From positions 11,817-75,816 of the IMG/VR virus record IMGVR_UViG_2706795919_000001: DNA of 64,000 nucleotides. One strand, 5' to 3'. This document shows positions 21,175 through 63,700 of this stretch, one piece after another; the stretch's first letter is position 1, and every line of letters starts with the position of its first letter. The translations under genes were made by a program, and so were the position numbers. Source of the DNA: a virus (taxonomy: Duplodnaviria; Caudoviricetes). The notes below the pieces were generated by a model. It saw nothing but the letters and a program-made list of their open reading frames with translations, was not told the origin of the DNA and did not search any database.

Positions 21175-22007
21175 TGAGATTCCAGTTGGGGCTTAGGCTG
21201 CTTACGCGTCTTAAGCACGTCGGCGTAAGTAGCCTTGCCCCTGCGGACCTTTTTCCAGAGTCCGGTTTTCATGTGGCGCTGCTTGAGTCGCCATGAGATT
21301 GCAGAAGTGATTCCGAAGCCGCACGCAGCGAGCGCCGTGAGTCCCCAAGCGTGGCGCGCGTAGTCGATGTTGTAGAGCACGCCCAAGATGCGCTCCGCAC
21401 CGGCCAGAAGGGCAACGAAGCAGCAGCCAAGATAGGCGCGCATGATGCCGCGCGAGCGCGGGTCGGTGAGCTTAATGATCATGAGCAGACGGCCAATCTG
21501 GAAAATCCACCAGCCGAAAGCTGCCGTCAGGAGCGCGTCAACAACGCGGTCGCTAAGCGTGTAGAACGCGCCGATAAGCGTAGGGCTGATGAGCGTGACC
21601 GGGAGCGTGATGTTGCGCGTTACCCAGCGCATCCGCTCGTCCTCGTCATAGTCCAGCCGGGACGCAAGCGAGTACAGGAACGCGGCCATGCCCATAAGGA
21701 CGAAGCCGTCACCGATGATCTGGGGGAGCGGCAGAAGCTCGTCCACTAAGCCCAACTCCGGCCAGATGACCTGCCGCACAAACGGCGATCCCAGCGTCAG
21801 GCCGAAGGTGCAGCACGCGCCGCAGAACGTCGTCGCGGACTCCCACCGGCAGCGCCAGGTAGCTCGTCGCGTCCATTGGATATACGCCGAAGCCAGAAAC
21901 ACACCGATAAGGATGAGGTTGTAGTACCGGAGGTCCAAAGTGACGAACGACGAGGACATACGCGATGGGCTTTCTCGAACACGCCAGCCATGTCTAGACG
22001 GGCGCAA
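21171..22007 (-). CDS. Multi-pass membrane protein (true start probably internal)
   Basis: Several hydrophobic helices; co-oriented with the repressor. Confidence 0.75.
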   Translation of the reverse strand: MRPSRHGWRVRESPSRMSSSFVTLDLRYYNLILIGVFLASAYIQWTRRATWRCRWESATTFCGACCTFGLTLGSPFVRQVIWPELGLVDELLPLPQIIGDGFVLMGMAAFLYSLASRLDYDEDERMRWVTRNITLPVTLISPTLIGAFYTLSDRVVDALLTAAFGWWIFQIGRLLMIIKLTDPRSRGIMRAYLGCCFVALLAGAERILGVLYNIDYARHAWGLTALAACGFGITSAISWRLKQRHMKTGLWKKVRRGKATYADVLKTRKQPKPQLESH

Positions 22008-22124
22008 TGTGGGAGGGGGACTGCACTGCTTATCGCTGTTGCGTAGCTACGCGTTACAGCGGGTGTACGCCTTGGGAATGTAGTCCCATATTTGGGAATA
22101 GCGCAAGCCCAAGGCGCTGCCCCA

Positions 22125-22508
22125 TCACATTGGCGGGCTGTCGAGCCGCGCCCTGACCCGTCGCCGCCTACTGCGGACTGCTCGGCGGGTCACTGTCGGA
22201 GGGTGGGGCTGTTCGTAATCCTCACCGCCCTCAACGTCAACCACGCCCGCGTCTGCGAGGTAGTCAACAAGCTCTTGCTCGTCTAGGTGGCCGAAGCGCA
22301 CCAGCAAGTCCACCTTGTTAAGGCCGAACGCGTCGGCAATGAGCATGAGGTTAGGCACGCTGTTGAGCACGCCCTTGTCCCTCTGCTCGTAGTAAGTAGA
22401 GCGGGACATGCCCAGCGCGCTAAGCGCCTCCTGCATTCGTACCTGCCGTCTGAGCAGGTAGGACACGACCACCAGTAGGTCGTTGTCCTGATCGTTTTTG
22501 GCCGACAT
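22125..22508 (-). CDS. Immunity repressor (HTH), probably leaderless mRNA
   Basis: ALSALGMSRSTYY HTH; divergent from Cro; CACACT -10 element 7 nt before ATG. Confidence 0.8.
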   Translation of the reverse strand: MSAKNDQDNDLLVVVSYLLRRQVRMQEALSALGMSRSTYYEQRDKGVLNSVPNLMLIADAFGLNKVDLLVRFGHLDEQELVDYLADAGVVDVEGGEDYEQPHPPTVTRRAVRSRRRRVRARLDSPPM

Positions 22509-22519
22509 GCCGCTCAGTG

Positions 22520-22604
22520 TGTCGGATTTTCCGGACAACCGCAACCGGTCCTGACCTGCGAGAGCAAAGTCACATGGATGTAATTTTGTCCGATTTTCCG
22601 GACA
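22520..22604. promoter_or_regulatory. Two 18-bp operators TGTC(C/G)GATTTTCCGGACA in the switch region
   Basis: Copies at 22520-22537 and 22587-22604; dyad TGTCCG-N6-CGGACA. Confidence 0.75.
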
Positions 22605-22607
22605 CGT

Positions 22608-22946
22608 TTGACCCTGAGTCGGACTGGGTATGTTACGTTTCTTTCCGTGCCGATCACCCCTCCCAACACCGCAAACCACAACATCGAATGGATTCCCCAA
22701 GCAGTCGAGAACCTGCTTCATAACCACGACATAATGACGCGCAACGAGCTTGCCAAAGTGCTCGGAGTTGCCAGGTCTACGGTCTACGGCGCATTTGCCG
22801 AGGACTGGACTGGTGAGCCGTCAATCAAGATGCTCGCTCAGATGGCCGGATACTTCCGCGTGCCTATCGGATCGCTCGTCACTGAGCCTGGGCGTAAGGC
22901 CGCTAAGCGCGAGTCACGGCGTGTAAATGTCCGGAGGATCGCATGA
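22608..22946 (+). CDS. Cro-like HTH protein (start uncertain)
   Basis: TRNELAKVLGVARSTVY HTH; divergent from the repressor. Confidence 0.82.
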   Translation: MTLSRTGYVTFLSVPITPPNTANHNIEWIPQAVENLLHNHDIMTRNELAKVLGVARSTVYGAFAEDWTGEPSIKMLAQMAGYFRVPIGSLVTEPGRKAAKRESRRVNVRRIA

Positions 22947-23161
22947 GCACCGCCACCCTGAGCAATCCGGAAAATCTGACACAGCCACTCATGGTGACCC
23001 GCCAGGACGCGGCCCGGCTCCTGGGCCTGAGCCTGCGCGAGGTCGATAACCTCCGCGCTTCCGGTCGCCTGATGGCAAAGAAGCACGGCTCCAAAGTCCT
23101 GTTCCCCCGCGCTGAGCTTGAGCGCTTCGTTAACGACCTGCCTTGGGAGGTTGACCAGTGA
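22943..23161 (+). CDS. Excisionase-like HTH protein
   Basis: TRQDAARLLGLS..GRL.AKKHG..VLFPRAELERF. Confidence 0.82.
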   Translation: MSTATLSNPENLTQPLMVTRQDAARLLGLSLREVDNLRASGRLMAKKHGSKVLFPRAELERFVNDLPWEVDQ

Positions 23162-23553
23162 CCGATCAGCCCGAACTTGAGTTCCCGTTTCACATGCAGT
23201 TGACCGAACCCGACTACGACTCCGCTAAGGCGCTTAAGGACGCGCTAGAGCTTCTAAGAAAGGATGGATGGGGACGTGGAAAGTTTCACGATGAGTCCAC
23301 AGGCAAGCGCGACTCTCTTGGGGCGCTCGGAGCGCCATTCGGGACAACCCGTCCAGAGGCAGTCGATTACCTCGCCTACGCCGTGCGGATGCGTGACGGC
23401 GCTCCCCCTATCCCGGCAAGCATGGACCCGCAGCGCGTCGTCATCAACTGGAACGACGGCTTCCGGCGCAAGTTCTCAGAAGTCGAGTCCGTGTTCAAAG
23501 CAGCTATTCGCTACGCAGAGGGTAAGGGCGTCTCAGTGCGACCGGGCCGTTAG
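23158..23553 (+). CDS. Hypothetical protein (DUF6197-like)
   Basis: GWGRG..LGAL..WND..R...EV..VF..A pattern. Confidence 0.65.
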   Translation: MTDQPELEFPFHMQLTEPDYDSAKALKDALELLRKDGWGRGKFHDESTGKRDSLGALGAPFGTTRPEAVDYLAYAVRMRDGAPPIPASMDPQRVVINWNDGFRRKFSEVESVFKAAIRYAEGKGVSVRPGR

Positions 23554-23724
23554 GGACACGGTTCTCTGCGCGCTCTCGTTAGCGGCTCTGATCCTCATTG
23601 GAGCCATCGTTCTTAACGCTTGGTTTGGAGGCTGGTTCTAATGGAGTCATGCGCTGTAATCAGTAGCCCTATTATTTCCGATAGGCGACTCTTCCCGTTA
23701 TCCTATAAAGGTGAGGGTGAGGGG

Positions 23725-24048
23725 ATGAGAAAGTTCAAGGACGTGATCGCGGAAGCGCGAATGGTCGCAATGCTTAACCCTCTTGGTCGCAATGAGAATG
23801 CGGCTTACACGGAGAGGGACGGAGAGCCATGCTGCATCTTCGGTCACGCCCTTGAACGCCTGGGAATCGGTATCGCGTCCTGGGAAGTGCTTAACAACTT
23901 CACGCTCGCTGAACTGCCTTGGGCCGACTTCGGCTTTGAGGAACCTAATGCCTACCAAATTCTTTGGACTACTAAGGTCCAAGCCGCTGCGGACAACGGG
24001 GACGCGTGGATCATCGCAATTGCGATGGCTGACGCAACCCTGATCTAA
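23725..24048 (+). CDS. Hypothetical protein
   Basis: GAGGGG RBS before ATG 23725; PCCIFGHAL motif. Confidence 0.65.
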   Translation: MRKFKDVIAEARMVAMLNPLGRNENAAYTERDGEPCCIFGHALERLGIGIASWEVLNNFTLAELPWADFGFEEPNAYQILWTTKVQAAADNGDAWIIAIAMADATLI

Positions 24049-24068
24049 GCAGCACTTAGTAACAACCA

Positions 24069-24432
24069 TACGTAGTTGACCTCTACGAACTAACCCCGTC
24101 GCCGGGGAGCCTGTGAACATGTACCGGGCTGCTGAGTGGTTCGCCAGCAAGTAAGTCAACGTGAGTACGTAACGCGGATGAACCGGTCCCTATAGGTGAA
24201 AGCCCATAGCAGCCGGAGAACGCGGGAGCGATGAGTAGCGGTTAGTGCCAGATCGGCGGCTACAAGCAAGGGCTATGGGTGAAAGTGATTGCCTAGCTTA
24301 CGGGTGCAACCCCCGTTCATCGCACCAGGCCGGGGCGGTCGAGACGCACGGAACGACGGGCATCGTTCTTAAGGGGCGCGGACGCGTAAGGGTGTGACGC
24401 TACGCAGCACCGCTGCTGCTCCCCCCCGGCCA
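24069..24432 (+). ncRNA. Cluster of structured non-coding RNA domains
   Basis: No credible ORF; four adjacent closed domains including a GAAA tetraloop stem. Confidence 0.65.
24228..24327 (+). ncRNA. tRNA-like RNA with acceptor stem, T arm and ACCA but no canonical D or anticodon arm
   Basis: GCGATGA/TCATCGC plus ACCA; ACGGG-TGCAACC-CCCGT. Confidence 0.7.
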
Positions 24433-24471
24433 TTCTCTTAAGTCACCACAACCACAACGAAAGGGCACGCA

Positions 24472-24834
24472 ATGACGGGTGTTATCTATCTCGGTGAGCC
24501 AACCGGCCCACGACTGCGGTCCTTAAGCCTCGCTAAGACGCGGGAGCTTGACGCGTGGTTGACGAACGCAATGAGCTACGGCGCGTCCAAGCACGATAAG
24601 GACCTGCCGGTGGATTACACGCGAGCGCTAAGCACGCTGGCGCAGCGCCGGGGTATCCGGTTCCACTTCAACGGGGACCGTATGCGCGTACCGGGTGAGG
24701 TCCCGTTGGGATCGAACATTCCCGGCTGTGTGGGTGGCTCAAAACGAAAGATCACCGTTACCGACGAACGCGCGATTGCATCGAAACATGGACAGGCCGT
24801 CGAACCGTGGAATATGCGGGATTGGCGGGAATAG
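24472..24834 (+). CDS. Hypothetical protein
   Basis: AAAGGG RBS, 120 aa. Confidence 0.65.
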   Translation: MTGVIYLGEPTGPRLRSLSLAKTRELDAWLTNAMSYGASKHDKDLPVDYTRALSTLAQRRGIRFHFNGDRMRVPGEVPLGSNIPGCVGGSKRKITVTDERAIASKHGQAVEPWNMRDWRE

Positions 24835-24864
24835 TTGACACCTTCCGTACATGCCGTGTACGGT
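24835..24864 (+). promoter_or_regulatory. SigA-type promoter with overlapping dyad
   Basis: TTGACA-N18-TACGGT; CGTACA-TGCCG-TGTACG. Confidence 0.75.
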
Positions 24865-24884
24865 ATCAATCAGTGGAGGTCCGA

Positions 24885-25046
24885 ATGGCCCAACTCTCCT
24901 GCGAACTGAATTGCGGGGCTAGCTACACCGAGGAATACCAGCTTCACCTTCACCACTACGCATCCGAAAAGGGCATCCTTCCCACCTGTGGTAAGGGCCG
25001 CGAGCGAAAGGCGCGCAATGCCGAGCGAGGAAATCAGGTCGCCTGA
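24885..25046 (+). CDS. Small C2H2-like zinc-binding protein
   Basis: GGAGG RBS; CELNC..LHLHH. Confidence 0.55.
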   Translation: MAQLSCELNCGASYTEEYQLHLHHYASEKGILPTCGKGRERKARNAERGNQVA

Positions 25047-25827
25047 CAAGCTGATGCTTGCCGGTGACTGGCACGGTAACTTGCCGTGGGCGTTCAAGGC
25101 GCTGCACTACGCGAAGTCAAACGGCGCAGACACGATTCTGCATGTCGGGGACTTCGGGTTCTGGCAGACCGCTAACCCGCGCACCGTGCAGTTCCTAAGC
25201 GAGGTCGATAAGGAGCTTAAGGCTCTTAGCATCGAACTGCTTTGGGTTGACGGCAATCATGAGGATCACGCGTTCTGGAACGGCTTCAACCGTCCGGACT
25301 CGGAGCCGGTCACGCTCTCGTCTTGCTCCAACATCACACACCTTCCGCGCGGTTACCGCTGGGAGTGGTGGGGCGATACGTGGATGGCTCTTGGCGGCGC
25401 TCATTCGATCAATCGGAGCTTCTGCACGCCGGGCGTGGACTGGTGGCCGGGCGAGTGGATTGACGACGAGCAACTTGAGTACGCGTGCCGTCCCGGCAAG
25501 GTGGACATAATCGTGGCCCACGATGCGCCGGAGGCTGTGACCATTCCCGGCATCGTTCCCGGCAAGCCGGTCTACATGCACATTGGCGGCATGAAGCGGC
25601 GGGTCCCGCAAGCGGACCTGCTTAAGGCTGAGGAACACCGGGCGCGCATTCAGACCGTGTGCGACGAGGTTAAGCCGGTGGAGTTCTACCACGGCCATTA
25701 CCACAAGGCGTACAACGCGCTGGCCCGCGTTAAGGGCGGCAGCTACGTCAACGTGCGCGGGCTGGACAAAGACGAAACAACTATGGCAGCGAACACCCAT
25801 TTCATCACGGAAGGTTTGAACGACTAA
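25018..25827 (+). CDS. Calcineurin-like metallophosphoesterase
   Basis: GDWHG, GDFG, GNHE, HDAP, HGHYH. Confidence 0.92.
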   Translation: MPSEEIRSPDKLMLAGDWHGNLPWAFKALHYAKSNGADTILHVGDFGFWQTANPRTVQFLSEVDKELKALSIELLWVDGNHEDHAFWNGFNRPDSEPVTLSSCSNITHLPRGYRWEWWGDTWMALGGAHSINRSFCTPGVDWWPGEWIDDEQLEYACRPGKVDIIVAHDAPEAVTIPGIVPGKPVYMHIGGMKRRVPQADLLKAEEHRARIQTVCDEVKPVEFYHGHYHKAYNALARVKGGSYVNVRGLDKDETTMAANTHFITEGLND

Positions 25828-28826: not shown

Positions 28827-30266
28827 ATGACCACATTCCTACGCAGCCTGCAAGAGCAGTTCAACCACACCACTACGGAGAACGGCGCTCTGGCCCATAA
28901 GAGCAGCTTCGATCCGGTGGTGGACTACTTCGGCCTGGCGGGCGCTATGCGTAACCGGGCTGAGGCTTCGGCTGACCTGTTTGAGACGGCGTTCCGCTCA
29001 GACGTGCAGGCCGCGATCCGGACCCTGTTCTATCTGCGTGATGTGCGCGGCGGCCAGGGGGAGCGCGATGTGTTCCGCGCTGGCCTTAAGCGGCTCGTCG
29101 GCCTTAGCCCCGTTAAGGCGGGCCGGGTGTTGCAGCATGTCCCGTTCTACGGGCGGTGGGACGATCTGCTGATTGAGGGTGTGTTCCATCACCCGGAGGT
29201 CCAGAAGATCATCCTTAACCAGTGGACGGCTGACGTTGCGGCTTACGAGCGCGGCGAGGGCGTGTCCCTGATGGCTAAGTGGCTCCCGTCCGACAAGGCG
29301 GCGAACAAGGAACTGGCTATCGCGGTCCGTAAGTCTCTGGGCCTGACGCAGCGTGAGTACCGCCAGACGCTTAGCGCGCTTAGGTCGCGGATCGGTCTGC
29401 TTGAGTCGTCCATGTCCCGGAACGAGTGGGATATCGACTACGGCAAGCTCCCGGCGCAGGCGCACCGTAAGCACGTCAAGGCTTTCCGGCGTCACTCGGA
29501 GGGCGAGTACCAGGCGTACTTGGATGCCGTCGAGCGCGGCGAAGCCAAGATCAACACGTCCACGCTGTACCCGCATGAGCTTTACGAAATGGCGACCCAC
29601 TACGGCGGCGACCGTAAGGCCGCTGACGTGATGTGGAACAACCTGCCGGATTACACGCGCGGCGCTGAGGCCATCGTCATGGCTGACGTGTCGGGGTCCA
29701 TGCACCAGTCGTGGAGCCAGGGCGCTAACCCAATCGCGGTGTCCGTCTCGTTGGCGCTGTACTTCGCAGAGCGGAACCAGGGCGACTACGCGGGCTACTT
29801 CATGACCTTTGCGTCCACTCCGGCGCTCATGAAGGTGCCTTCCGGGGACCTGAGTGCCCGTCTGAGCGCCGTGGAGAACTCTACGGGGTGGATGGGTAGC
29901 ACAGACGTTGGAAAGGCGTTTGACGCGATCCTGGCGGCTGGCGTGAAGTCGGGCACTGTCCCGGCCACTCTCTACATCATTTCGGACATGCAGTTCGACC
30001 AAGCGATTGACGACGGAAACGATACGACGTTCCAGACGGCTAAGCGGAAGTTCGCGGCTGCCGGGCTGGAACTGCCTCATGTCGTGTTCTGGAACGTGGA
30101 CGCTCGGAACGATCAGCTTCCGGCGACGATCTTGGACGGCCAAGTCACCTTGGTTTCCGGCTTCTCGCCTACGACGTTCGGTATGGCGGTAGAGGGCAAG
30201 ACTCCGCGCGAGCTTGTGGACTCCGTTATCAACGGTGAGCGCTACGAGCGGATTAATCCGTTCTAA
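28827..30266 (+). CDS. Ro60-like RNA-binding protein (TROVE-like/DUF2828 plus vWA domain)
   Basis: TTENGA, FYLRDVRGGQGER, GRWDDL, AKWLPS; MIDAS DVSGSM..STD..ISDMQFD. Confidence 0.88.
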   Translation: MTTFLRSLQEQFNHTTTENGALAHKSSFDPVVDYFGLAGAMRNRAEASADLFETAFRSDVQAAIRTLFYLRDVRGGQGERDVFRAGLKRLVGLSPVKAGRVLQHVPFYGRWDDLLIEGVFHHPEVQKIILNQWTADVAAYERGEGVSLMAKWLPSDKAANKELAIAVRKSLGLTQREYRQTLSALRSRIGLLESSMSRNEWDIDYGKLPAQAHRKHVKAFRRHSEGEYQAYLDAVERGEAKINTSTLYPHELYEMATHYGGDRKAADVMWNNLPDYTRGAEAIVMADVSGSMHQSWSQGANPIAVSVSLALYFAERNQGDYAGYFMTFASTPALMKVPSGDLSARLSAVENSTGWMGSTDVGKAFDAILAAGVKSGTVPATLYIISDMQFDQAIDDGNDTTFQTAKRKFAAAGLELPHVVFWNVDARNDQLPATILDGQVTLVSGFSPTTFGMAVEGKTPRELVDSVINGERYERINPF

Positions 30267-30369: not shown

Positions 30370-30498
30370 TGGACCCCCACAGCAATTGACAACTCACAGG
30401 AAAAACCGGTGGTCGCGGGTTCGAGTCCCGCTCGCTCGGGTTGACCGGGCGATAGCTCAGTGGGTAGAGCATTGGTCGCAGTTAACAAACGGGGTCCA
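30370..30498 (+). ncRNA. Y-RNA unit 2, YrlA-like with permuted tRNA domain
   Basis: TGGACCCC/GGGGTCCA stem, ACAGCAA, T arm, loop-closed acceptor stem, then D arm. Confidence 0.88.
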
Positions 30499-52602: not shown

Positions 52603-52965
52603 TTAGGTGATGTATCCGGCTTGCCGGGCGCGGCCAACGTAGTAGCCCACAGACTTGGGCGCACACCCGATGGCCTTGCTTACGGCCTGGGTCCTGCCGC
52701 CTGTCTCTGAGTCGTTGTAAGCCTTGGCGATCTTCTCAAGGGTTGCCTCGTCTAGCACCCGGCGTACGGCTTTGCGCTTGCGCCGCTTGGGTGTTGAGGA
52801 AACGACCGTTAGCTTAGCGGGCTTAGCCGGTGTCGGCTGGGTTCCGTTGGTGCCGATCAGTTCTCGGATGAGCACCTGTTCCATTTCGCTTGCTAGTTCT
52901 GTGTGTTCGTGCTTACGGAGTACGACCGCGGCATTAGCTACGAGCGCCATTTCTGACTTGTTCAT
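52603..52965 (-). CDS. HTH DNA-binding protein, probably leaderless
   Basis: TQAVSKAIGCAPKSVGYYVGRARQAG; TACCCT 7 nt before ATG. Confidence 0.78.
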   Translation of the reverse strand: MNKSEMALVANAAVVLRKHEHTELASEMEQVLIRELIGTNGTQPTPAKPAKLTVVSSTPKRRKRKAVRRVLDEATLEKIAKAYNDSETGGRTQAVSKAIGCAPKSVGYYVGRARQAGYIT

Positions 52966-53029
52966 GCACGTCAGGGTACATGCGCTGCTCTCTTACGTAC
53001 TCACGTTGACTTACTTGGGGGTGGTCTGT

Positions 53030-53737
53030 GTGTCGGGGGTTCTTAGCCTTTACGGCACACGGAGTTCTAAGTTCTGGTCTGAGGCTCCGGCGAAGTTCGA
53101 CGTGCTCAATCTGCGCGCGATCTTCCCGTCAAGCTCCCGCGAGGGCATCCCTGATCTAGAGCGCTGCGATTGGGTCCCGGACGTGCTGGGCGCTTGGCAC
53201 ATGCCACGCCAGCGCGAGGCTGCGGCTCGGGAGAACGGCGCGGTCCACTTCTTTCTGGACGACTACAGGTTTGAGACGGCGTTTAGCAGCCCTGAGCGGA
53301 CCGTGGGGCGAGTTTTGGACGTGGGTGGTGCCCTAGAGCCGAACTTCTCCATTTACTACGACATGCCGCGTGTGGCGCAGGTTTGGAACACGTACCGGAC
53401 CCGCTGGTGCGGTGCCTACTGGCAGAGCCAGGGCGTGAAGGTCATTCCTACCGTCTGCTGGGCACGCTCAGAGACTTTTGAGTTCGTCTTTGACGGGATA
53501 CCGCAGGGCGGCACTGTGGCGCTCTCAGCGCTCGGTATGGGGCAGAAGCCGGAGGACGTTCAGATATTCGTTGACGGACTCCGCGAGCTTGTGGATCGCG
53601 TGCAGCCGTCCACGATCCTGTCCTACGGGAAGCTCCGGCATGTACCGGACTCGCTGAGCCTGCCGACTGTGCGCGAGTACCCGACGTTCTGGGATATGCG
53701 CCGGAAGATGCTTAAGGCCGCTAATGGGTCGGGGTAG
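53030..53737 (+). CDS. DUF4417-like protein
   Basis: VHFFLDDYRFE, PNFSIYYDMP..Q.WN.YR.RW.GAYWQ..G.KVIPTV.W. Confidence 0.82.
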   Translation: MSGVLSLYGTRSSKFWSEAPAKFDVLNLRAIFPSSSREGIPDLERCDWVPDVLGAWHMPRQREAAARENGAVHFFLDDYRFETAFSSPERTVGRVLDVGGALEPNFSIYYDMPRVAQVWNTYRTRWCGAYWQSQGVKVIPTVCWARSETFEFVFDGIPQGGTVALSALGMGQKPEDVQIFVDGLRELVDRVQPSTILSYGKLRHVPDSLSLPTVREYPTFWDMRRKMLKAANGSG

Positions 53738-54110: not shown

Positions 54111-54160
54111 TATTAGCCCCTACCCAAGCCTCTCTACGATGCTCAAATGGGTAGGGCCGT

Positions 54161-58597: not shown

Positions 58598-59056
58598 ATG
58601 GGCAGAGGTCGCGGCGGCGGGGGACGCGGCGGGGGAGCATCCCCTAATCCCCTAACGGACCCTAATTTGACCGCTGATCTGGTTAACGATAGGGCAGCGG
58701 TAGACAACCAAGCGGACACGCCTAACGCTGCCGAAGCGGCAGAGAACTTAGGTTTGCAGGACGACGCTAAGGACGACTTTGTAAACGGCGCTAACGCTAC
58801 CGACAAAGCAATAGACGGTAAGGGACCTGAGCAAGCCTTAGGTGACTTCGCTAAGTCCGTTAAAGCGTATGAGCGCAAATATGGCAGGAGCGCCGCGCGT
58901 GCTTATGGCGCTGGCGGATATTGGTCCCTATTGCGCGCTATTCGTACGGCTATGGCAGTAGGCGCAACTGTTACTAGCGCTCCGGCAGCGCCAGCGCTGG
59001 CAGCGGCTAACACAGCGCTTATCGCTAGTTACTGGGCAGCGCGGCTAGGCAAGTAA
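58598..59056 (+). CDS. Hypothetical protein with MGRGRGGGGRGGG N-terminus
   Basis: GGAG RBS, 152 aa, only rightward gene in the leftward arm. Confidence 0.65.
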   Translation: MGRGRGGGGRGGGASPNPLTDPNLTADLVNDRAAVDNQADTPNAAEAAENLGLQDDAKDDFVNGANATDKAIDGKGPEQALGDFAKSVKAYERKYGRSAARAYGAGGYWSLLRAIRTAMAVGATVTSAPAAPALAAANTALIASYWAARLGK

Positions 59057-59514
59057 GCGCCCAGGAGCGCGGAGCGGATACGAGCAGCATGGTAGTGCCA
59101 ACCGGTTACGCGGAGCGGAGCGCTAAGCACGCTTAGGAGCCTTAGCGCCCAGGAGCGGCCCAGGAGCGACGGAGCTGCTTGGTTTGTCACCTGGCAGCAC
59201 GCCTAGCGCGGCCCAGGAGCACAGCGCCCAGGAGCCACGCGCGTAAGCACGCGTTAGGAGCGCCCAGGAGCGCCGTAGGGACACGCAAGCGGACACCGCA
59301 CACAACGGAGCGCCCAGGAGCGCCAGCGCGGCCCAGCGGCCCAGGAGCGCCCAGCGGCTAGCCGGTACCGGCAGCACGCGGAGCGGAGCGGCCCAGAAAC
59401 GGCGCTGTGCTTAACGCTGAGCGACTAACGGCGCTTAGCCGCATAGACGGTACCTAAGCGCCCAGGAGCGCACACAGGAGCGCGGCCCAGGAGCACGCCC
59501 AGGAGCGCACACGC
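59057..59514. repeat. CCCAGGAGC repeat spacer 1
   Basis: About 11 same-strand copies by manual count plus a 33-nt module at 59171-59203. Confidence 0.9.
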
Positions 59515-59550
59515 AAAAGGACCCGGCTAGCGCGGTGCTAACCGGGTCCT
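59515..59550 (-). terminator. Cassette terminator
   Basis: AGGACCCGG/CCGGGTCCT with TTTT on the minus strand. Confidence 0.8.
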
Positions 59551-59569
59551 ATGCGCCGTAGCGCGGTGC

Positions 59570-60397
59570 TCATTCGCTGAGCAGACCTAGCCGCTTGAGA
59601 ACCTTACGCGTACACGCTTCGGGGTCCCGGTTGTCAGTCAGCGAGTCAATGTAAATCGCACCTTCGGGAAATTCTTCCATGTGAGTCGCGCCAGTAATGG
59701 CAGCGCCGTAAGAGCTAGGGCAACCAATTGCCTTAACCCAGCGCGCGGGCAAGTGATGCATGGTGTGAAACATCACGGAGCGAAGGTAAGAATCGTGGGT
59801 TAGCGCGTACATAAACGCGGACACGTCAAACAAACCACCGGCAGTCTTAAGCCTTACAGCGGTGCGGCAAGTGACACCGCTAGCGCGCGTTTGGTCGTCA
59901 GTCCAGACTTCTACCTGAGCGCCGGTTGTAACGATTGCTTGGATAAGCGCCACAATCGCGCGTCCGCGCCGTTCAATGGACTCGCTAGTGATGTAAGCGT
60001 TATGCGACACGCTGACCACAAGCGTAATGATTGGCCGAACCTGCTCCGTTTCTGCCAATTCGTAAGCCACCATGCACTCAGGTTCTCCGGACACGTAGCG
60101 GCCCATATCGACGTAAGCGCCAGCGGTGTCCATGTAGTTATCAAAGCTGACAGTCTTAAGCGGCATATCGTGCTGTGTGGCGCTTGCGAAGTTGATTGCA
60201 GCGAGTCCAGCGCTGGGCAGTCCCTTACGCGCAATTTCGTAGGCGTGCTGCATATCGCGCGCGCCGTAGAAGCTGTGATTGCCGTATTCCTGCATTTCTT
60301 TTGACCGGTAGTCCTTACCGGCAGCATTGAAGTCGATTAGCTCAGTCAGCGAGTCAAAGAACAGACTCGCATGGTTGCCGTTCTGGTTGGCGCGCAT
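59570..60397 (-). CDS. vWA-like MoxR partner protein (paralogue 2)
   Basis: AGAYVDMGRYVSGEPECM, FDVSAFMYALTH.SYLR. Confidence 0.78.
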   Translation of the reverse strand: MRANQNGNHASLFFDSLTELIDFNAAGKDYRSKEMQEYGNHSFYGARDMQHAYEIARKGLPSAGLAAINFASATQHDMPLKTVSFDNYMDTAGAYVDMGRYVSGEPECMVAYELAETEQVRPIITLVVSVSHNAYITSESIERRGRAIVALIQAIVTTGAQVEVWTDDQTRASGVTCRTAVRLKTAGGLFDVSAFMYALTHDSYLRSVMFHTMHHLPARWVKAIGCPSSYGAAITGATHMEEFPEGAIYIDSLTDNRDPEACTRKVLKRLGLLSE

Positions 60398-60433
60398 GGT
60401 GTCCTCCGTGGTGTGTGGTGCGGTGTGCGTGTC

Positions 60434-60462
60434 ACGTTACACGCCGTGACCGGAGCACGCAA
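60434..60462 (-). promoter_or_regulatory. Cassette promoter with dyad
   Basis: TTGCGT-N17-TAACGT. Confidence 0.75.
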
Positions 60463-60469
60463 GCGGAAT

Positions 60470-60706
60470 CGCTAAGCGCGCTTAGGGACCCTTAGCGCCA
60501 GCGCCCAGGAGCGCGACGGAGCTGCTTGGTTTCACGCCTGGCAGCACGCCCAGGAGCGGAGCGCCCAGGAGCGCGGCAGCGCCAGCGCCCAGGAGCGCCC
60601 AGGAGCGCCGTAGCGCGCTTAGGCACACACACGCCCAGGAGCACACGCGCTAGCGCCGTAGGAGCGCACACAGCGCCCAGGAGCGCGGCCCAGGAGCCAC
60701 ACAGCA
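60470..60706. repeat. CCCAGGAGC repeat spacer 2
   Basis: About 8 copies plus the 33-nt module at 60518-60550. Confidence 0.9.
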
Positions 60707-60741
60707 AGGGACCCGGCTACCTGAGCGGCAACCGGGTCCCT
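60707..60741 (-). terminator. Cassette terminator
   Basis: AGGGACCCGG/CCGGGTCCCT. Confidence 0.75.
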
Positions 60742-60756
60742 GTGCGGTGCTGAGCG

Positions 60757-61965
60757 CTACGCGCTGACCTTGCCCCAAGCGGCAGCGTCCATGCCCTTAC
60801 GGAGCGTCCATGCAACGGCGTCGTCCCAATCGACGTTTTGCGCCAGGAGCGCGGCCATGTTCTGCGAAGCGCGCGGGGACACGACAACTCCGGCGATTGC
60901 TTCGCGCTTGACATTGGCGCGGACACGCTGCACGTAAGCGACGGCGCGCTTAGTCACGTCAACCGGAGCACCTTCGGCAAGCGCCGCTTGCAATTCGATG
61001 TTCTCGTCAATGTCCCACCAAATCGCCACAAAGCGATCTTTGAATTCCGCGCTGAACTTCTGCGCTGCCGGGAATTCCCAAGTAGGACCGTCGCCCCAAG
61101 TGTTAGTAGCGGCAACCATAACGTGCTTATCGGTCAGCTTGACGGTTTCACGGTTCGGGAACGTAATCCACCGGTTGCTCAGGAGTGAGTTAAGCGCCGC
61201 TTGAATACCCGCGTGGCTACGGTCCAATTCGTCGTTAAGCAGGACACCGCCATTAGGGTTAGTCGCCCAATCGTAAACAACGGTCCAAACGAATTCGCCG
61301 GTAGCGGACATGTAACCCTTAAGCTCCGAAGCGGTGCTTTGCAGGTGGTAGCCAATGCTGTAGAAGTCGATACCCAGCGCTTCGGCAACCTGGGCGCAAA
61401 CGTGAGTCTTACCGGTTCCCGGAGGACCCACAAGCTGCACGTTACGACGCGCGGCGATTGCCTTAAGCAGCTTGTCGAAGTCCTTATGAGTCACGCCGTC
61501 AATTTCGCGCGTCTCGTTATCGGCAACCACAATCGTCCGCTCAGGCATAACCACACCTTCGATAACTTCGCGGGCAATGTCCTTAACCTGCTCAGCGTCG
61601 ATTTGCGGAGTACCCAGAACCTTCAAAAGCAGGTCCCGGAGCGCGGCCATTTCGTCAGCGCTGCCAGCGCCGTTGCCCTGTGCAGGAGCGGGGACAATCT
61701 CGGAATCGCTGCCGTTGTCCTGTGCAGGGGCAGGAGCGGGGACCTCCGTGCCGTTGTGCGTACCGGTCTGCTCCGTGCAGACGTGCAGGTAGCTCAGCGG
61801 CAGCGACTCGCCCTGTGCGACGTTCAGCGTTGCCTTATTGGCGATAACGCGGTGCTCCGCGCCGTTCTGGTCTGTAGCCGCGTAGAACGGCCCAGCGTTG
61901 CCGCACTTCGGGCAAGCGGAGCGCATAGCGCGGATGCTGACCTTGGTAAGGGTTTCGATGCTCAT
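60757..61965 (-). CDS. MoxR/CobS-like AAA+ ATPase with N-terminal Zn ribbon
   Basis: GPPGTGKT, LNDELD, AATNTWG, FKDRF, VSPRA; CPKC; GGAGG RBS. Confidence 0.9.
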   Translation of the reverse strand: MSIETLTKVSIRAMRSACPKCGNAGPFYAATDQNGAEHRVIANKATLNVAQGESLPLSYLHVCTEQTGTHNGTEVPAPAPAQDNGSDSEIVPAPAQGNGAGSADEMAALRDLLLKVLGTPQIDAEQVKDIAREVIEGVVMPERTIVVADNETREIDGVTHKDFDKLLKAIAARRNVQLVGPPGTGKTHVCAQVAEALGIDFYSIGYHLQSTASELKGYMSATGEFVWTVVYDWATNPNGGVLLNDELDRSHAGIQAALNSLLSNRWITFPNRETVKLTDKHVMVAATNTWGDGPTWEFPAAQKFSAEFKDRFVAIWWDIDENIELQAALAEGAPVDVTKRAVAYVQRVRANVKREAIAGVVVSPRASQNMAALLAQNVDWDDAVAWTLRKGMDAAAWGKVSA

Positions 61966-62018
61966 TTGGGACCTCCGTGGTTGGCGCTGGTTAGGCGCTG
62001 CGGTGACTGACAGGAGCG

Positions 62019-62074
62019 ACGTTACACGCCGTGACCGGTAAGCACAAGTCCTAAGTTTCACGCCGTGACCGGTA
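62019..62074 (-). promoter_or_regulatory. Cassette promoter plus a second dyad copy
   Basis: TTGTGC-N17-TAACGT; CACGCCGTGACCGGTA occurs twice. Confidence 0.75.
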
Positions 62075-62079
62075 GCACG

Positions 62080-62373
62080 CTGACCAGCGCGTTAAGGGTC
62101 CTTAGCGGTGTGTCGCTTAGCGCCGTAGCGGTGTGCCAGGAGCACGCGCGGCCCAGGAGCGGCCCAGCGCTGCCGGAGCTGCTTGGTTACTGACCTGGCA
62201 GCACGCCTAAGCACGCTTAGCGCCCAGCGCCCAGGAGCGCGACACCGCGCGCGGCCCAGGAACACAGGAGCGCCCAGGAGCGCCCAGGAGCCTTAGCGCA
62301 CACGCTGACAAGCGCCAGCGCGCTAACGGCGCTTAGAACGGCGCTCAGCGCCCAGGAACACACGCACAAAGCA
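62080..62373. repeat. CCCAGGAGC repeat spacer 3
   Basis: About 6 copies plus the 33-nt module at 62175-62207. Confidence 0.88.
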
Positions 62374-62407
62374 AGGGACCCGGCTAGCCGTAGCCAACCG
62401 GGTCCCT
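62374..62407 (-). terminator. Cassette terminator
   Basis: AGGGACCCGG/CCGGGTCCCT. Confidence 0.75.
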
Positions 62408-62420
62408 GTGTGCAGCGGTG

Positions 62421-62624
62421 CTAGTCGCTGTAGCGCTGGCAATCGTCCGCGTACACATTGCCGCTTGAGTCCTGCCACACAACACAGCGGATTACCTCCG
62501 CGTGTGCCGTAGGACCGTGCAGCGCCAGCGCGGCAAGGGCAGCGCCCAGGAGCACGCACAGCGCCAGGAGCGCCAGCGCGCGCCGTGACACAAAGCGCTC
62601 AGTACGTACGTTGATTGCGTCCAT
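62421..62624 (-). CDS. Small secreted or membrane protein
   Basis: Signal peptide ending AHA; CACGGAGG RBS. Confidence 0.65.
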   Translation of the reverse strand: MDAINVRTERFVSRRALALLALCVLLGAALAALALHGPTAHAEVIRCVVWQDSSGNVYADDCQRYSD

Positions 62625-62650
62625 GTTCGTTACCTCCGTGGTGTGTGTGG

Positions 62651-62878
62651 TCAGTATCCGGCGATATGTGCAATCAACTCAGCGCGCGCGCCAATGTCAC
62701 TAGGCACGGCGCTACCACCGGCAACCATTAGCGCCGATTCCTGCCACGCGTACATATCGGCAATCTCGTCAGCGCTGTAATCCGTGTCCGCGCGGTGCTC
62801 CGCGTAATCGTCCATGTATGCGCTGTGCATGTCTGCAATGTCCTGAGCTACCTGCTCCGCGCTATCCATGTAGAACAT
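62651..62878 (-). CDS. Small acidic protein
   Basis: CACGGAGG RBS; internal repeat ADEIADMY / AQDIADMH. Confidence 0.65.
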   Translation of the reverse strand: MFYMDSAEQVAQDIADMHSAYMDDYAEHRADTDYSADEIADMYAWQESALMVAGGSAVPSDIGARAELIAHIAGY

Positions 62879-62920
62879 TCTGCTTACCTCCGTGGTGTGG
62901 TGTGTGTGGTGACAGGAGCG

Positions 62921-62949
62921 AAGTTACACGCCGTGACCGATACACGCAA
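62921..62949 (-). promoter_or_regulatory. Cassette promoter with dyad
   Basis: TTGCGT-N17-TAACTT. Confidence 0.75.
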
Positions 62950-63700
62950 CACACACGCGCGAAGCGCCCAGGAGCACGCACACAGGAGCGTTAAGCGCTA
63001 AGCACGCTAAGCGCCGTTAAGGGCAGCGCCCAGGAGCACAACCAAGCAGCTCCGGCAGCGCGGCCCAGTAGCGCGGCATAAGCACAGCGCGCGCGATTGC
63101 CTAAGCACGCCTAAGCCATGCGACACCGCACACGCACAGCGGCCCAGCGCCCAGGAGCACACGCACAGGGACACCGCATACACATAGCGCCGTATATGCG
63201 CCCAGGAGCGACACACACCGCACAGGGACACGTACACCACACACACGCACACACCACACACAGCGGCCCAGGAGCACGCACACACACAGCACGCATACAC
63301 ACCACACAGGGCAGCGCTACACACACCACACACGCACACGCTCAGCACAGCGCACAGGGACACACCACACACACGCCCAGGAGCGCACAGGAGCCACGCA
63401 CAGCGCTAAGCCATACACACGCATAGGTAAGCGCTCAGCGGAGCACACAAGCGCACACAGCACGCCTAGCGATAGGCACACGCACAGCGCGCGGGAATGT
63501 CGCAATAGCGAATATGCGAATAGCGCCCATATGCGCCCAGGAGCCAATAACCCACATATGCGGGTAAGCGCTAAGGGACACGCTAAGCACACGCACACAG
63601 GGCAGCACAGCGCCCAGGAGCGCACATAGCTAGGGCAGCGACTAAGCACACCTAAGCCTTAGGCACAGGGACACGCATAGCGACACCTAAGGGAACGGAC
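62950..63700. repeat. CA-rich low-complexity region with CCCAGGAGC repeats
   Basis: CACAC/GCACA runs with very few T on the plus strand; about 8 repeat copies. Confidence 0.88.

Follow-up and report, generated by a model that had tools for sequence, protein, structure and literature searches.

Organization of the locus

The window, meaning the whole stretch of 64,000 nucleotides analysed here, belongs to a cluster L (L3-like) mycobacteriophage, and positions 24069-24432 lie inside a gap of about 423 nt between two early-right genes. This gap is retained in L1, L2, L3 and L4 phages, in a prophage of Mycolicibacterium sphagni and in a more distant prophage group, with a sequence identity of only about 66-70% between the lineages compared. 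The following features are considered below.

24069-24171, plus strand: domain A, a four-way junction (from sequence, RNAalifold and pair counts with controls)
24075-24080 with 24155-24160, plus strand: helix P1 of domain A, GTTGAC/GTCAAC, with an L3 extension TACGTA (24069-24074) / TACGTA (24166-24171)
24094-24098 with 24103-24107, plus strand: helix P2, CCCCG/CGGGG
24108-24113 with 24125-24130, plus strand: helix P3, AGCCTG/CGGGCT
24131-24134 with 24145-24148, plus strand: helix P4, GCTG/CAGC
24148-24172, plus strand: site 1, running from the last P4 base through J4/1 (AAGTAAG) and the P1 3' strand into the linker
24183-24216, plus strand: domain B, a CCGG...CCGG hairpin enclosing CTATAGG-TGAAAG-CCCATAG
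24228-24327, plus strand: domain C, a tRNA-like cloverleaf in normal tRNA order with a 3' ACCA; acceptor stem GCGATGA/TCATCGC (7 bp) and T arm ACGGG-TGCAACC-CCCGT (5-bp stem, 7-nt loop)
24328-24432, plus strand: domain D, with outer stem GGCCGGGG...CCCCGGCC, inner stem GAACGA/TCGTTC and distal stem GCAGC/GCTGC
24433-24471, plus strand: spacer, CA-rich and G-poor (CACCACAACCACAAC), with the GAAAGGG ribosome-binding site of the next gene
24472-24834, plus strand: gp43-like gene, 120 aa, phrog_5916 (no known function)
52993-53017, plus strand: site 2, perfect complement of site 1 on the plus-strand transcript
53030-53737, plus strand: DUF4417 gene, Pfam PF14386 (E 3.6e-58), phrog_940 'nuclease', also 'nuclease' in the annotation of relatives

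A first-pass annotation had placed four structured domains in the gap, and every element that it listed was found in the sequence at these positions, the helices being reproduced by the minimum free energy fold. It had also described the region as free of ORFs. Taken literally this does not hold, since the gap contains a 50-aa ORF with a GTG start (24245-24397) and short minus-strand ORFs, but none of them is conserved, and no ORF common in position, strand or sequence was found across 15 genomes. Annotators have placed ORFs in the gap of Krypton555 (gp43), LeBron (gp44) and Fezzik (one CDS), which differ in place and frame.

The statement that no Rfam family is recognizable also stood: a search of 23900-24600 returned nothing even at E<=10, and a search of the whole window at the gathering threshold gave nothing for the gap RNA. 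Among the loci of 12 relatives, searched at E<=1, the sole match was a sub-threshold tRNA inside domain C of MkaliMitinis3. No curated model of the known riboswitch and ribozyme classes (Rfam 15) matched the gap at E<=10; a group I or II intron, a known riboswitch and a ribozyme were dropped for want of any model match, as was a tmRNA, which was found neither by ARAGORN nor, in the gap, by Rfam. No description of the gap RNA was found in the literature searched. The fold energy of the gap (about 422 nt) was not better than that of shuffled sequences (z +0.73 and +0.94 for the two strands); single-sequence thermodynamics is thus uninformative here and gives the structure no support. That the structure exceeds chance follows from the comparison with relatives, which reveals compensatory changes. 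Judged on this comparison, the structured RNA of the gap is real and conserved, has several domains, and belongs to the early rightward operon of cluster L phages and to related prophages.

A conserved four-way junction

In domain A, there is little or no variation in the junction strands TACGAA.TAAC and CAAGTAAG or in much of the P4 loop. Among 14 sequences, 98.8% of 322 cells were paired and changes on both sides occurred at 7 of 23 pairs, although these counts, like those given below for the other domains, come from few lineages of related phages and their cells are not independent events. Neither the paired fraction nor the covariation score was reached in any of 500 shuffles; slid controls were 30-48% paired. 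A covariance model of the domain (R1) scored 103.7 bits on the window. Over 151 genomes of the family of M. sphagni it gave one true match, in the same M. sphagni prophage; a second match (28 bits) sits within a 338-aa ATPase-like ORF and was rejected. The most conserved 22-mer pattern likewise had a single match in a genome scan, again the M. sphagni prophage, and none in a metagenome scan.

Domain A also occurs alone in an integrase-bearing provirus fragment, directly 5' of an excise-like HTH gene and followed by a hairpin and a U-rich stretch. No sequencing run registered as RNA was found to contain the stretch; two of the runs compared are DNA assemblies of close relatives. A 549-nt contig from a wastewater 'RNA-Seq' run, flagged as probably DNA, matches only 24085-24117 and probably stems from a distant relative of domain A. 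Domain A would be suitable for Rfam as a candidate new family.

The tRNA-like element and the flanking domains

Two parts of a tRNA, the acceptor stem and the T arm, are recognizable in domain C. Across 17 sequences the acceptor stem covaries, with 3 non-pairs in 119 cells, and so does the T stem, with none in 85; for both stems together this amounts to 3 non-pairs in 204 cells, with changes on both sides at 8 of 12 pairs. The T loop reads TTCRATT in 14 of the 17 sequences (13 TTCGATT, one TTCAATT) and deviates in the window and its L3 kin (TGCAACC, TGCAATC). The tail that follows the acceptor stem is ACCA only in L3 and L4, being ACTG, ACGA or GCAA elsewhere. The remainder of the cloverleaf departs from tRNA: the place of a canonical D arm is taken by a bulged hairpin of 5-9 bp that begins directly at the end of the acceptor stem, and the middle arm, which is long and has 6-nt or other loops unlike those of an anticodon arm, differs wholly between lineages. 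Neither ARAGORN nor Rfam tRNA (RF00005, E<=10) reported a tRNA in the gap of the window. Because the 7-bp acceptor stem and the T arm are the conserved and covarying parts of the domain, it is plausible that the RNA is cut here.

In one of the 15 relatives' loci, that of Fezzik, ARAGORN predicted a tRNA-Leu(caa) at the same slot, which is annotated there too, and domain C of MkaliMitinis3 contains a nested Rfam tRNA element of 26.2 bits, below the gathering score of 29. Along with the ORFs annotated in the gap of Krypton555, LeBron and Fezzik, these observations could indicate that the gap holds decayed tRNA genes and other non-functional remnants, or a small-protein gene. This is very improbable. 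Compensatory changes have maintained the helices across lineages that share only about two thirds of their sequence, which argues against decay, and the annotated ORFs, none of which is shared, do not coincide in place or frame. The annotations of Krypton555 gp43, LeBron gp44 and the Fezzik CDS and tRNA-Leu probably need revision.

Domain D is delimited by an outer stem that was found in 15 of 15 sequences, measures 8 to 11 bp depending on the lineage (8 + 2 bp in the window) and spans about 104 nt. Its inner hairpin has an invariant loop, CGGGCA, on the stem GGAACGA/TCGTTCT, with no non-pair in 91 cells and variation at 6 of 7 pairs. A conserved ACGTAAGGGTGTG block, the distal hairpin and ATTCTCTT follow on the 3' side. 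Pairs of this domain were counted by anchored scripts; MAFFT/RNAalifold shifted one row group by a base and missed the inner hairpin. The CACCAC...CGAAAGG segment of the adjoining spacer is conserved in all lineages, and in each lineage with domains C and D, the distant prophage group included, the gp43-like gene comes after the RNA. Its product has no Pfam family and gave no usable Atlas lead, its model being of low confidence.

Domain B differs between lineages inside its closing stem: Krypton555 carries an insertion of 57 nt, and in L1 the sequence is another and longer one. The GNRA loop attributed to it is of that type in the window but is not conserved, the relative Samty having CGAATG. 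The first-pass annotation had proposed one large ncRNA, or a polycistron cut at the ends of the tRNA-like element; a conserved non-coding RNA of several domains, one of them tRNA-like, is supported by the covariation in domains A, C and D, by the lack of a shared ORF and by the lack of an Rfam match.

A co-varying complement 29 kb downstream

The 25 nt of site 1, at the 3' edge of domain A, are matched without any mismatch (100%) by the reverse complement of site 2; no such match is expected from 100 shuffles. The two sites lie about 29,000 bases apart, both on the strand of rightward transcription. When the gap was compared with the remainder of the window, no other match exceeded 13 nt, and this one was the only outlier among those of at least 11 nt. 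In all 15 genomes examined base by base, site 1 is the reverse complement of site 2 with an exact run of 21-28 nt, except that in Bromden 12 + 12 nt of identity surround one difference. This difference, T versus C, is the sole internal one; between two RNAs it would be a U-G wobble. Within the first 22 nt of the pair, identity holds in 321 of 330 cells. L1, L2 and L3 differ from one another in six columns, and every change is mirrored at site 2; the L4/M. sphagni site type shows further differences, including a 1-nt insertion, which are mirrored as well. Five further genomes have one forward and one reverse copy each, so that the pair is present in 20 of 20 cluster-L-type genomes checked, the number of cluster L records matched being 89. 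The predicted dimer contains a 25-bp duplex, with a calculated net gain of about -32 kcal/mol over the separate folds. As far as sequences can tell, this is the extended, co-varying complementarity expected of a trans-acting antisense RNA. The 25-nt complement at 52993-53017 had not figured in the first-pass annotation.

The same pattern could arise if both sites acted as DNA, as inverted binding sites of a phage protein (a regulator, a fork barrier or a recombination function), their overlap with the RNA being incidental. There are exactly two inverted copies per genome, identical within and different between lineages, and co-evolving protein-site pairs or gene conversion could produce such a two-copy arrangement. 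However, site 1 is composed of parts of a covarying RNA structure, and J4/1 is kept in genomes in which site 2 was not detected. The identical run is 21-28 nt long, depending on the lineage, and the one mismatch within it is a U-G type difference. The 25-mer has no palindromic symmetry, and a third copy was not found near the repressor/cro region with up to 3 mismatches allowed; nor was a sigma-70-like promoter found in 22000-25200, where terminator-like sites occur at chance level. A role as DNA therefore seems quite unlikely to us, and the pair is treated below as a putative RNA-RNA interaction.

The DUF4417 gene and the surroundings of site 2

The presumed target, the DUF4417 gene, lies within the tRNA array, and its GTG start falls inside a conserved hairpin whose closing pair is of four types. 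In the window, site 2 ends 12 nt 5' of this GTG, directly before the G-rich ribosome-binding site GGGGTGG, and in 11 of 14 loci 11-16 nt separate the end of site 2 from the DUF4417 start. In the L4 phages, three in number, site 2 and DUF4417 are separated by one or two tRNA genes (Ser, Ala), and the start is about 175-300 nt further on. Since the pair is kept there despite the intervening tRNA genes, occlusion of the ribosome-binding site cannot be its whole function; for these genomes, processing of the tRNA-array transcript, or an action of the spacer RNA on domain A, fits better. In Lumos, site 2 starts 1-3 nt past the annotated 3' end of tRNA-Lys(CUU). Part of site 2 can also be drawn in a weak predicted pairing with the G-rich ribosome-binding site, in which case binding of the RNA could activate DUF4417 and not repress it.

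The only complete genome (G001) that carries the RNA but no DUF4417 homologue is devoid of site 2 too. Likewise, the distant prophage group has kept domains A-D and has neither site 2 nor DUF4417. Together with the occurrence of domain A alone in the provirus fragment, this points to a function of the RNA that is independent of the pairing.

Transcription and a possible function in cis

In the Crossroads (L2) transcription report (PMC6426596), genes 41-48, which are early rightward genes and span the homologous gap (between genes 45 and 46), are described as early, and genes 59-118 as both early and late, the two blocks being separately initiated transcripts. The infection RNA-seq of that report, with samples at 30 and 150 min, is listed as GEO GSE121829. 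The latter block should contain site 2, given that in Faith1 this site is just upstream of gene 115. A study of RNA-based prophage replication uses LeBron merely as a control (PMC7157519).

Domain A could be mainly a cis-acting leader of the early operon, for example one that modifies RNA polymerase for processive antitermination or a ligand- or protein-sensing switch, with the complement as an off-switch or a secondary feature. It lies early in a rightward block of genes, about 30 kb long and with many structured tRNA genes, which is in line with this, as are its solitary occurrence directly 5' of the excise-like HTH gene, its persistence in the prophage group that is devoid of site 2, and the combination of invariant junction strands with covarying helices, which is that of aptamer-like or protein-binding RNAs. 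Against it, no Rfam riboswitch or leader family matches, no terminator-like site is found 3' of domain A in the window, and in cluster L the domain is not at a transcript start but about 1.4 kb downstream of a cro-like gene. The separate initiation of the two Crossroads blocks also speaks against it. We hold this function in cis to be rather unlikely as the main one.

The Ro-like gene and Y RNAs

A Ro-like gene (28827-30266, 479 aa) is found on the same strand 4.4 kb downstream of the RNA, which makes a Y-RNA-like role possible: the RNA, or its tRNA-like part, would associate with the Ro-like protein of the phage and, like bacterial Y RNAs, take part in the quality control or decay of RNA. The protein, named 'Ro-like RNA binding protein' in Jobypre, corresponds to Pfam DUF2828 and DUF7788 with a weak VWA match, and homologues (60-71% identity) were present in five of five genomes tested, including the distant group devoid of site 2. 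A survey of bacterial Y RNAs (PMC4201824) describes them as tRNA mimics encoded mostly within 4 kb of Ro on the same strand, reports that species have at least two of them, and gives the M. smegmatis YrlA a 7-bp acceptor stem that is cut by RNase P. The gap RNA resembles YrlA (RF02553) in its tRNA-mimicking module, 7-bp acceptor stem, T arm and Ro-like gene on the same strand. The invariant ACGAA of domain A is also reminiscent of part of the GNCGAAN0-1G motif given there. This match is only partial, however: in the invariant TACGAA a U replaces the first G, and the next base is G, C or T, so that the last G is not conserved.

There are further differences. The gap RNA is far larger than YrlA, and the Rfam YrlA model had no match in 23900-24600 at E<=10. 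The YrlA consensus runs T arm, hairpin, D arm, whereas domain C is unpermuted. A separate and better YrlA-like element lies right after the Ro-like gene, at 30407-30478; it scored 37.7 bits (39.8 bits in LeBron) against a gathering score of 69, and the permuted order of the model is visible in its alignment. Moreover, Pfam TROVE misses the Ro-like protein in this genome and in five others. A Y-RNA-like role for the gap RNA is unlikely in our estimation. The three cluster L names searched for, LeBron, Faith1 and Rumpelstiltskin, are absent from the survey's phage table.

Proposed mechanism

The reading that we prefer, and to which we give an even chance, is that a structured RNA, made early and then processed, pairs with the leader of DUF4417 or with tRNA-spacer RNA. 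The gap RNA would be co-transcribed with the early genes. The acceptor stem and T arm of domain C would offer a handle for host RNase P and the 3'-end trimming enzymes, and processing there would release an upstream RNA consisting of domains A and B, while domain D would remain on the gp43-like mRNA as its structured leader. The released RNA would then use the 3' edge of domain A, where the linker follows the single-stranded junction CAAGUAAG and the weak P1 3' strand, to pair over 21-28 nt with a spacer RNA. This spacer lies some 29 kb further downstream, where the tRNA array ends, immediately 5' of the DUF4417 ribosome-binding site. A perfect duplex of such length abutting this site would most likely block initiation, create a substrate for RNase III, or both, and DUF4417 expression would be held down for as long as the early RNA is abundant. 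Between the two possible effects on DUF4417, we lean slightly towards repression over activation. The discrete RNA, its processing at domain C, the pairing in cells and its outcome are all parts that we infer.

A more elaborate possibility, which we consider quite improbable, is that of a timing device. The early four-way-junction RNA would be bound to the Ro-like or gp43-like protein or would act on RNA polymerase, until transcription arrives at the distal end of the rightward programme and yields the exactly complementary spacer RNA, which would switch it off by invading and unfolding the junction, the duplex at the same time marking the tRNA-array/DUF4417 transcript for cleavage. If this were true, the distance of 29 kb would be the clock, and the tRNA-like module would tie the device to host tRNA processing.

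Comparison with known systems

With trans- or cis-encoded antisense systems such as tracrRNA with the CRISPR anti-repeat, OOP of lambda and sar of P22, the proposed pairing shares a perfect complementarity of about 25 nt between RNAs from separate transcripts, a duplex long enough for RNase III and a regulator from a phage early region. In contrast to these, the candidate antisense segment described here forms part of a conserved four-way junction to which a tRNA-like module is attached, and its target is not opposite the regulator but about 29 kb away on the same strand; no CRISPR/Cas context was seen. The 3' external transcribed spacer of glyW-cysT-leuZ in Escherichia coli likewise provides a site in a tRNA-array spacer for pairing with small RNAs, but the pairing proposed here is perfect, much longer, and abuts a ribosome-binding site in most genomes.

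A tRNA-like cloverleaf directly 3' of a larger non-coding RNA is known from the mascRNA of MALAT1, a eukaryotic case in which RNase P cleavage forms the 3' end of the upstream RNA; the phage RNA would be cleaved in a corresponding manner. The put RNAs of HK022 are comparable as structured RNAs of a temperate phage early operon located upstream of a very long transcription unit. They consist of two simple stem-loops close to the promoter and bring about processive antitermination, whereas the gap RNA has no likeness to them in sequence or structure, to go by their description.

Significance for cluster L phages

The natural co-variation of sites 1 and 2 resembles a compensatory-mutation experiment, which makes the pairing directly testable. 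To our knowledge, mycobacteria do not have the usual RNA chaperones Hfq and ProQ, and very little work has been done on RNA regulators in mycobacteriophages. If the gap RNA acts as an antisense RNA, its 21-28 nt of perfect and co-evolving complementarity would provide a clear case of pairing that needs no chaperone. The locus moreover brings together mimicry of tRNA, an array of phage tRNA genes, and a Ro-like phage protein that has a YrlA-like RNA of its own. These features suggest a hitherto undescribed RNA-processing programme in cluster L phages, and the co-varying sites suggest that one phage RNA may control another.

Genomic location and conservation of the gap

The window represented 64 kb out of a 75.8-kb virus record. 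BLASTN of the region returned 89 phage records, all of them Mycobacterium phages annotated as Lclasvirinae (cluster L), and Lumosvirus (L3) phages were the nearest, with 95-98% identity. The structured RNA domains occupied a 423-nt gap between two phage genes, whose position about 1.4 kb right of a divergent repressor/cro-like pair placed it in the early rightward operon, in line with the early region named in the first-pass annotation.

24046-24048: stop codon of the gp42-like gene, left border of the gap
24069-24171 (+): domain A
24183-24216 (+): domain B
24228-24327 (+): domain C
24328-24432 (+): domain D
24472: start of the gp43-like gene, right border of the gap

All helices listed in the first-pass annotation were recovered at these positions, and the minimum-free-energy fold gave the same ones. 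The fold energy of the gap was no better than that of dinucleotide shuffles on either strand (z +0.73 and +0.94), and ARAGORN called no tRNA in it. The initial impression that no Rfam family is represented was borne out by a blank Rfam search of the gap at E<=10. Description of the gap as ORF-free needs rewording: short ORFs do occur, but none was common to 15 genomes by place, strand or frame. Annotated features in homologous gaps, namely Krypton555 gp43 (L001 2148-2354), LeBron gp44 (L012 1251-1388) and a CDS and tRNA-Leu of Fezzik (L011 1032-1157 and 1244-1326), overlapped the structured RNA, were not conserved and are probably mis-annotations. Fezzik was the only one of 15 relatives' loci in which ARAGORN called a tRNA.

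A gap of about 420-550 nt was found at the equivalent place in L1, L2, L3 and L4 phages, although DNA identity between subclusters was just 66-70%. Pattern scans added a Mycolicibacterium sphagni prophage, whose identical sequence is also an IMG/VR provirus, and seven near-identical IMG/VR contigs (group X) carrying diverged forms of all four domains followed by a gp43-like gene. The same scans revealed domain A without the other domains in an 11.8-kb provirus fragment, lying ahead of an excise-like HTH gene and with an integrase region on its other side (L041 / L095 1580-1750; 105 bits on R1, the covariance model of domain A). Domain A stands alone there, with a hairpin and a U-rich stretch after it, and therefore serves another mobile element as a separate module. 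In the 151 genomes searched from the M. sphagni family, the covariance model gave one true match; another match, located inside a protein-coding gene, was rejected. Pattern scanning of metagenomes gave no match. A 549-nt contig from run X3 (wastewater, labelled RNA-Seq) matched window positions 24085-24117, corresponding to the P2 region of domain A only, and had flanks resembling a diverged P4 loop; it is possibly a more distant member of the domain A family.

Structure of the RNA domains

Domain A formed a four-way junction (helices P1-P4) in which 98.8% of 322 cells were paired among 14 distinct sequences, with both-sided changes at 7 of the 23 pairs. None of 500 shuffles reached the observed paired fraction or covariation score, and sliding the 3' partners by 1-3 columns reduced pairing to 30-48%. 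The junction strands TACGAA.TAAC and CAAGTAAG, as well as much of the P4 loop, were invariant or nearly so. Domain B was a variable hairpin: the GNRA loop described for it is present in the window, but a GNRA-like loop is lost even among L3 phages.

Domain C displayed a cloverleaf with arms in normal tRNA order. Its 7-bp acceptor and 5-bp T stems covaried (3 non-pairs in 204 cells, both-sided changes at 8 of 12 pairs), and the T loop read TTCRATT in 14 of 17 sequences and TGCAACC or TGCAATC in L3 phages, including that of the window. The D-like and middle arms were not tRNA-like, and the middle arm was swapped wholesale from lineage to lineage. It was wholly different among Faith1, Bazzle, Archie and MkaliMitinis3, yet one version was common to L2 and L4 phages, a sequence distribution that points to module exchange. 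In MkaliMitinis3 this arm (L013 888-952) contained a nested tRNA-like element scoring 26.2 bits with the Rfam tRNA model, below the gathering score of 29. As for domain D, an outer stem of 8-11 bp was present in all 15 sequences; its inner hairpin, absent from L1 and group X, combined an invariant CGGGCA loop with a stem showing no non-pairs in 91 cells and variation at 6 of 7 pairs.

Compensatory changes, which the first-pass annotation had put forward as a check, were found across lineages in domains A, C and D. Sequence comparison therefore shows the structured RNA to be real, its conserved parts being domains A and D and, within domain C, the acceptor/T scaffold.

A complementary site upstream of the DUF4417 gene

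When contigs of related phages were aligned to the window, positions 24150-24172 mapped twice in their genomes. This repeated stretch belongs to a 25-nt exact reverse complement, for which no match was expected in shuffles; in neither orientation did the gap share any other match above 13 nt with the remainder of the window.

24148-24172: site 1, 3' edge of domain A (last P4 base, the single-stranded J4/1 junction between P4 and P1, the 3' strand of the weak helix P1 and the following linker)
52603-52965 (-): 120-aa leftward ORF without Pfam or PHROG match, separating tRNA-Lys(ctt) from site 2
52993-53017: site 2, same transcribed strand as site 1
53029-53060: conserved hairpin holding the DUF4417 GTG start
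53030: GTG start of the DUF4417 gene (235 aa, Pfam E 3.6e-58, PHROG 'nuclease')

Base-by-base comparison showed site 1 to be the reverse complement of site 2 in 15/15 genomes, with exact runs of 21-28 nt; the Bromden pair had 12 nt on either side of one difference. The first 22 nt comprised 330 cells, of which 321 were identical; eight of the nine differences fell at the first three positions, and the ninth, in Bromden, would form a U-G wobble as RNA. Six columns of the pair varied among L1, L2 and L3; L4 and M. sphagni had a common type that diverged further and had one inserted base, and every lineage-specific change was found at both sites. Five more genomes had one forward and one reverse copy each, and the pair was present in 20/20 cluster-L-type genomes. 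A DUF4417 homologue was missing from the complete group X genome, and so was a second site (<=3 mismatches, or an exact reverse-complement run >=14 nt).

Site 2 ends 12 nt before the DUF4417 start, with a G-rich ribosome-binding site immediately downstream of site 2. Of the 14 loci compared, 11 had the start 11-16 nt past site 2. In L3 phages (Lumos, for example), site 2 begins 1-3 nt past the annotated end of tRNA-Lys(CUU) and therefore fills the spacer between this tRNA and the ribosome-binding site. In the three L4 phages, site 2 and DUF4417 are separated by tRNA genes (Ser and/or Ala). The 120-aa ORF was found in the window's phage only, being absent from its relatives Lumos, Samty and Krypton555, and the insertion stops exactly at the edge of site 2. 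Seven sequences showed four Watson-Crick forms of the pair that closes the start hairpin (the base before GTG with a third codon position), pointing to structured control of initiation. Where the rightward gene block ends, an Rfam abiF RNA motif (54119-54156; 45.3 bits, above the gathering score of 37) closely precedes tRNA-Asn. Many direct-repeat families with the unit GCGCCCAGGAGCGC, together with CA-rich tracts, occur between leftward genes of the right arm at 59000-63650.

Proposed mechanism

As same-strand exact complements change together, RNA-RNA pairing of both sites is the simplest account of these sequences. A dimer fold predicted a duplex of 25 bp, the net gain being about -32 kcal/mol. 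The single-stranded J4/1 would serve as pairing seed, P1 being then opened by strand invasion. Since the duplex would abut the DUF4417 ribosome-binding site in most genomes, blocked translation and/or RNase III cleavage would be the favoured outcome. Activation of DUF4417 instead of repression is possible, because part of site 2 can be drawn in weak pairing with the ribosome-binding site. Such pairing next to DUF4417 cannot be the only role of the RNA, as shown by the tRNA genes that intervene in L4 phages and by group X, which keeps the RNA but has no site 2.

In the available text of the Crossroads (L2) study, early rightward transcription begins upstream of gene 41 and spans genes 41-48, and a second rightward unit, early and late, covers genes 59-118; that text mentions no RNA in the gap (PMC6426596). 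The homologous gap lies between Crossroads genes 45 and 46. Site 2 should belong to the second unit, since in Faith1 it is located just before gene 115. Domain C may act as a processing handle, as its acceptor and T stems covary and, as reported in PMC4201824, a tRNA-like Y RNA whose acceptor stem has 7 bp is a substrate of M. smegmatis RNase P.

Relation to Y RNA and novelty

A Ro-like gene lies 4.4 kb downstream of the gap, and a 380-nt gap directly after it holds a YrlA-like element.

28827-30266, same strand as the gap: Ro-like gene (479 aa; DUF2828, DUF7788, weak VWA match)
30407-30478: YrlA-like element (Rfam YrlA 37.7 bits, below the gathering score of 69, E 6.7e-6)

Ro-like homologues were found in 5/5 genomes tested, including group X, and Pfam TROVE was not detected in the protein. 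The YrlA match of LeBron covered the full model and reached 39.8 bits; at E<=0.01 the three remaining phage or prophage loci had none. The gap RNA could be a second partner of the Ro-like protein, but the ordinary Y RNA of the phage is probably the element at 30407-30478. The latter is probably a cluster L phage Y RNA not described before; LeBron, Faith1 and Rumpelstiltskin, the cluster L names searched, were absent from the phage table in the accessible part of the Y-RNA survey.

Literature searches covering tRNA-like and non-coding RNA of mycobacteriophages, RNA-seq of cluster L, sRNA and antisense RNA of phages, and structured RNA with covariation gave no description of the gap RNA; a large survey of viral structured RNA (PMC10690425) may include the motif. 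The gap RNA would combine two known kinds of element, a structured antisense RNA and a tRNA mimic, and domain A represents a candidate new RNA family.
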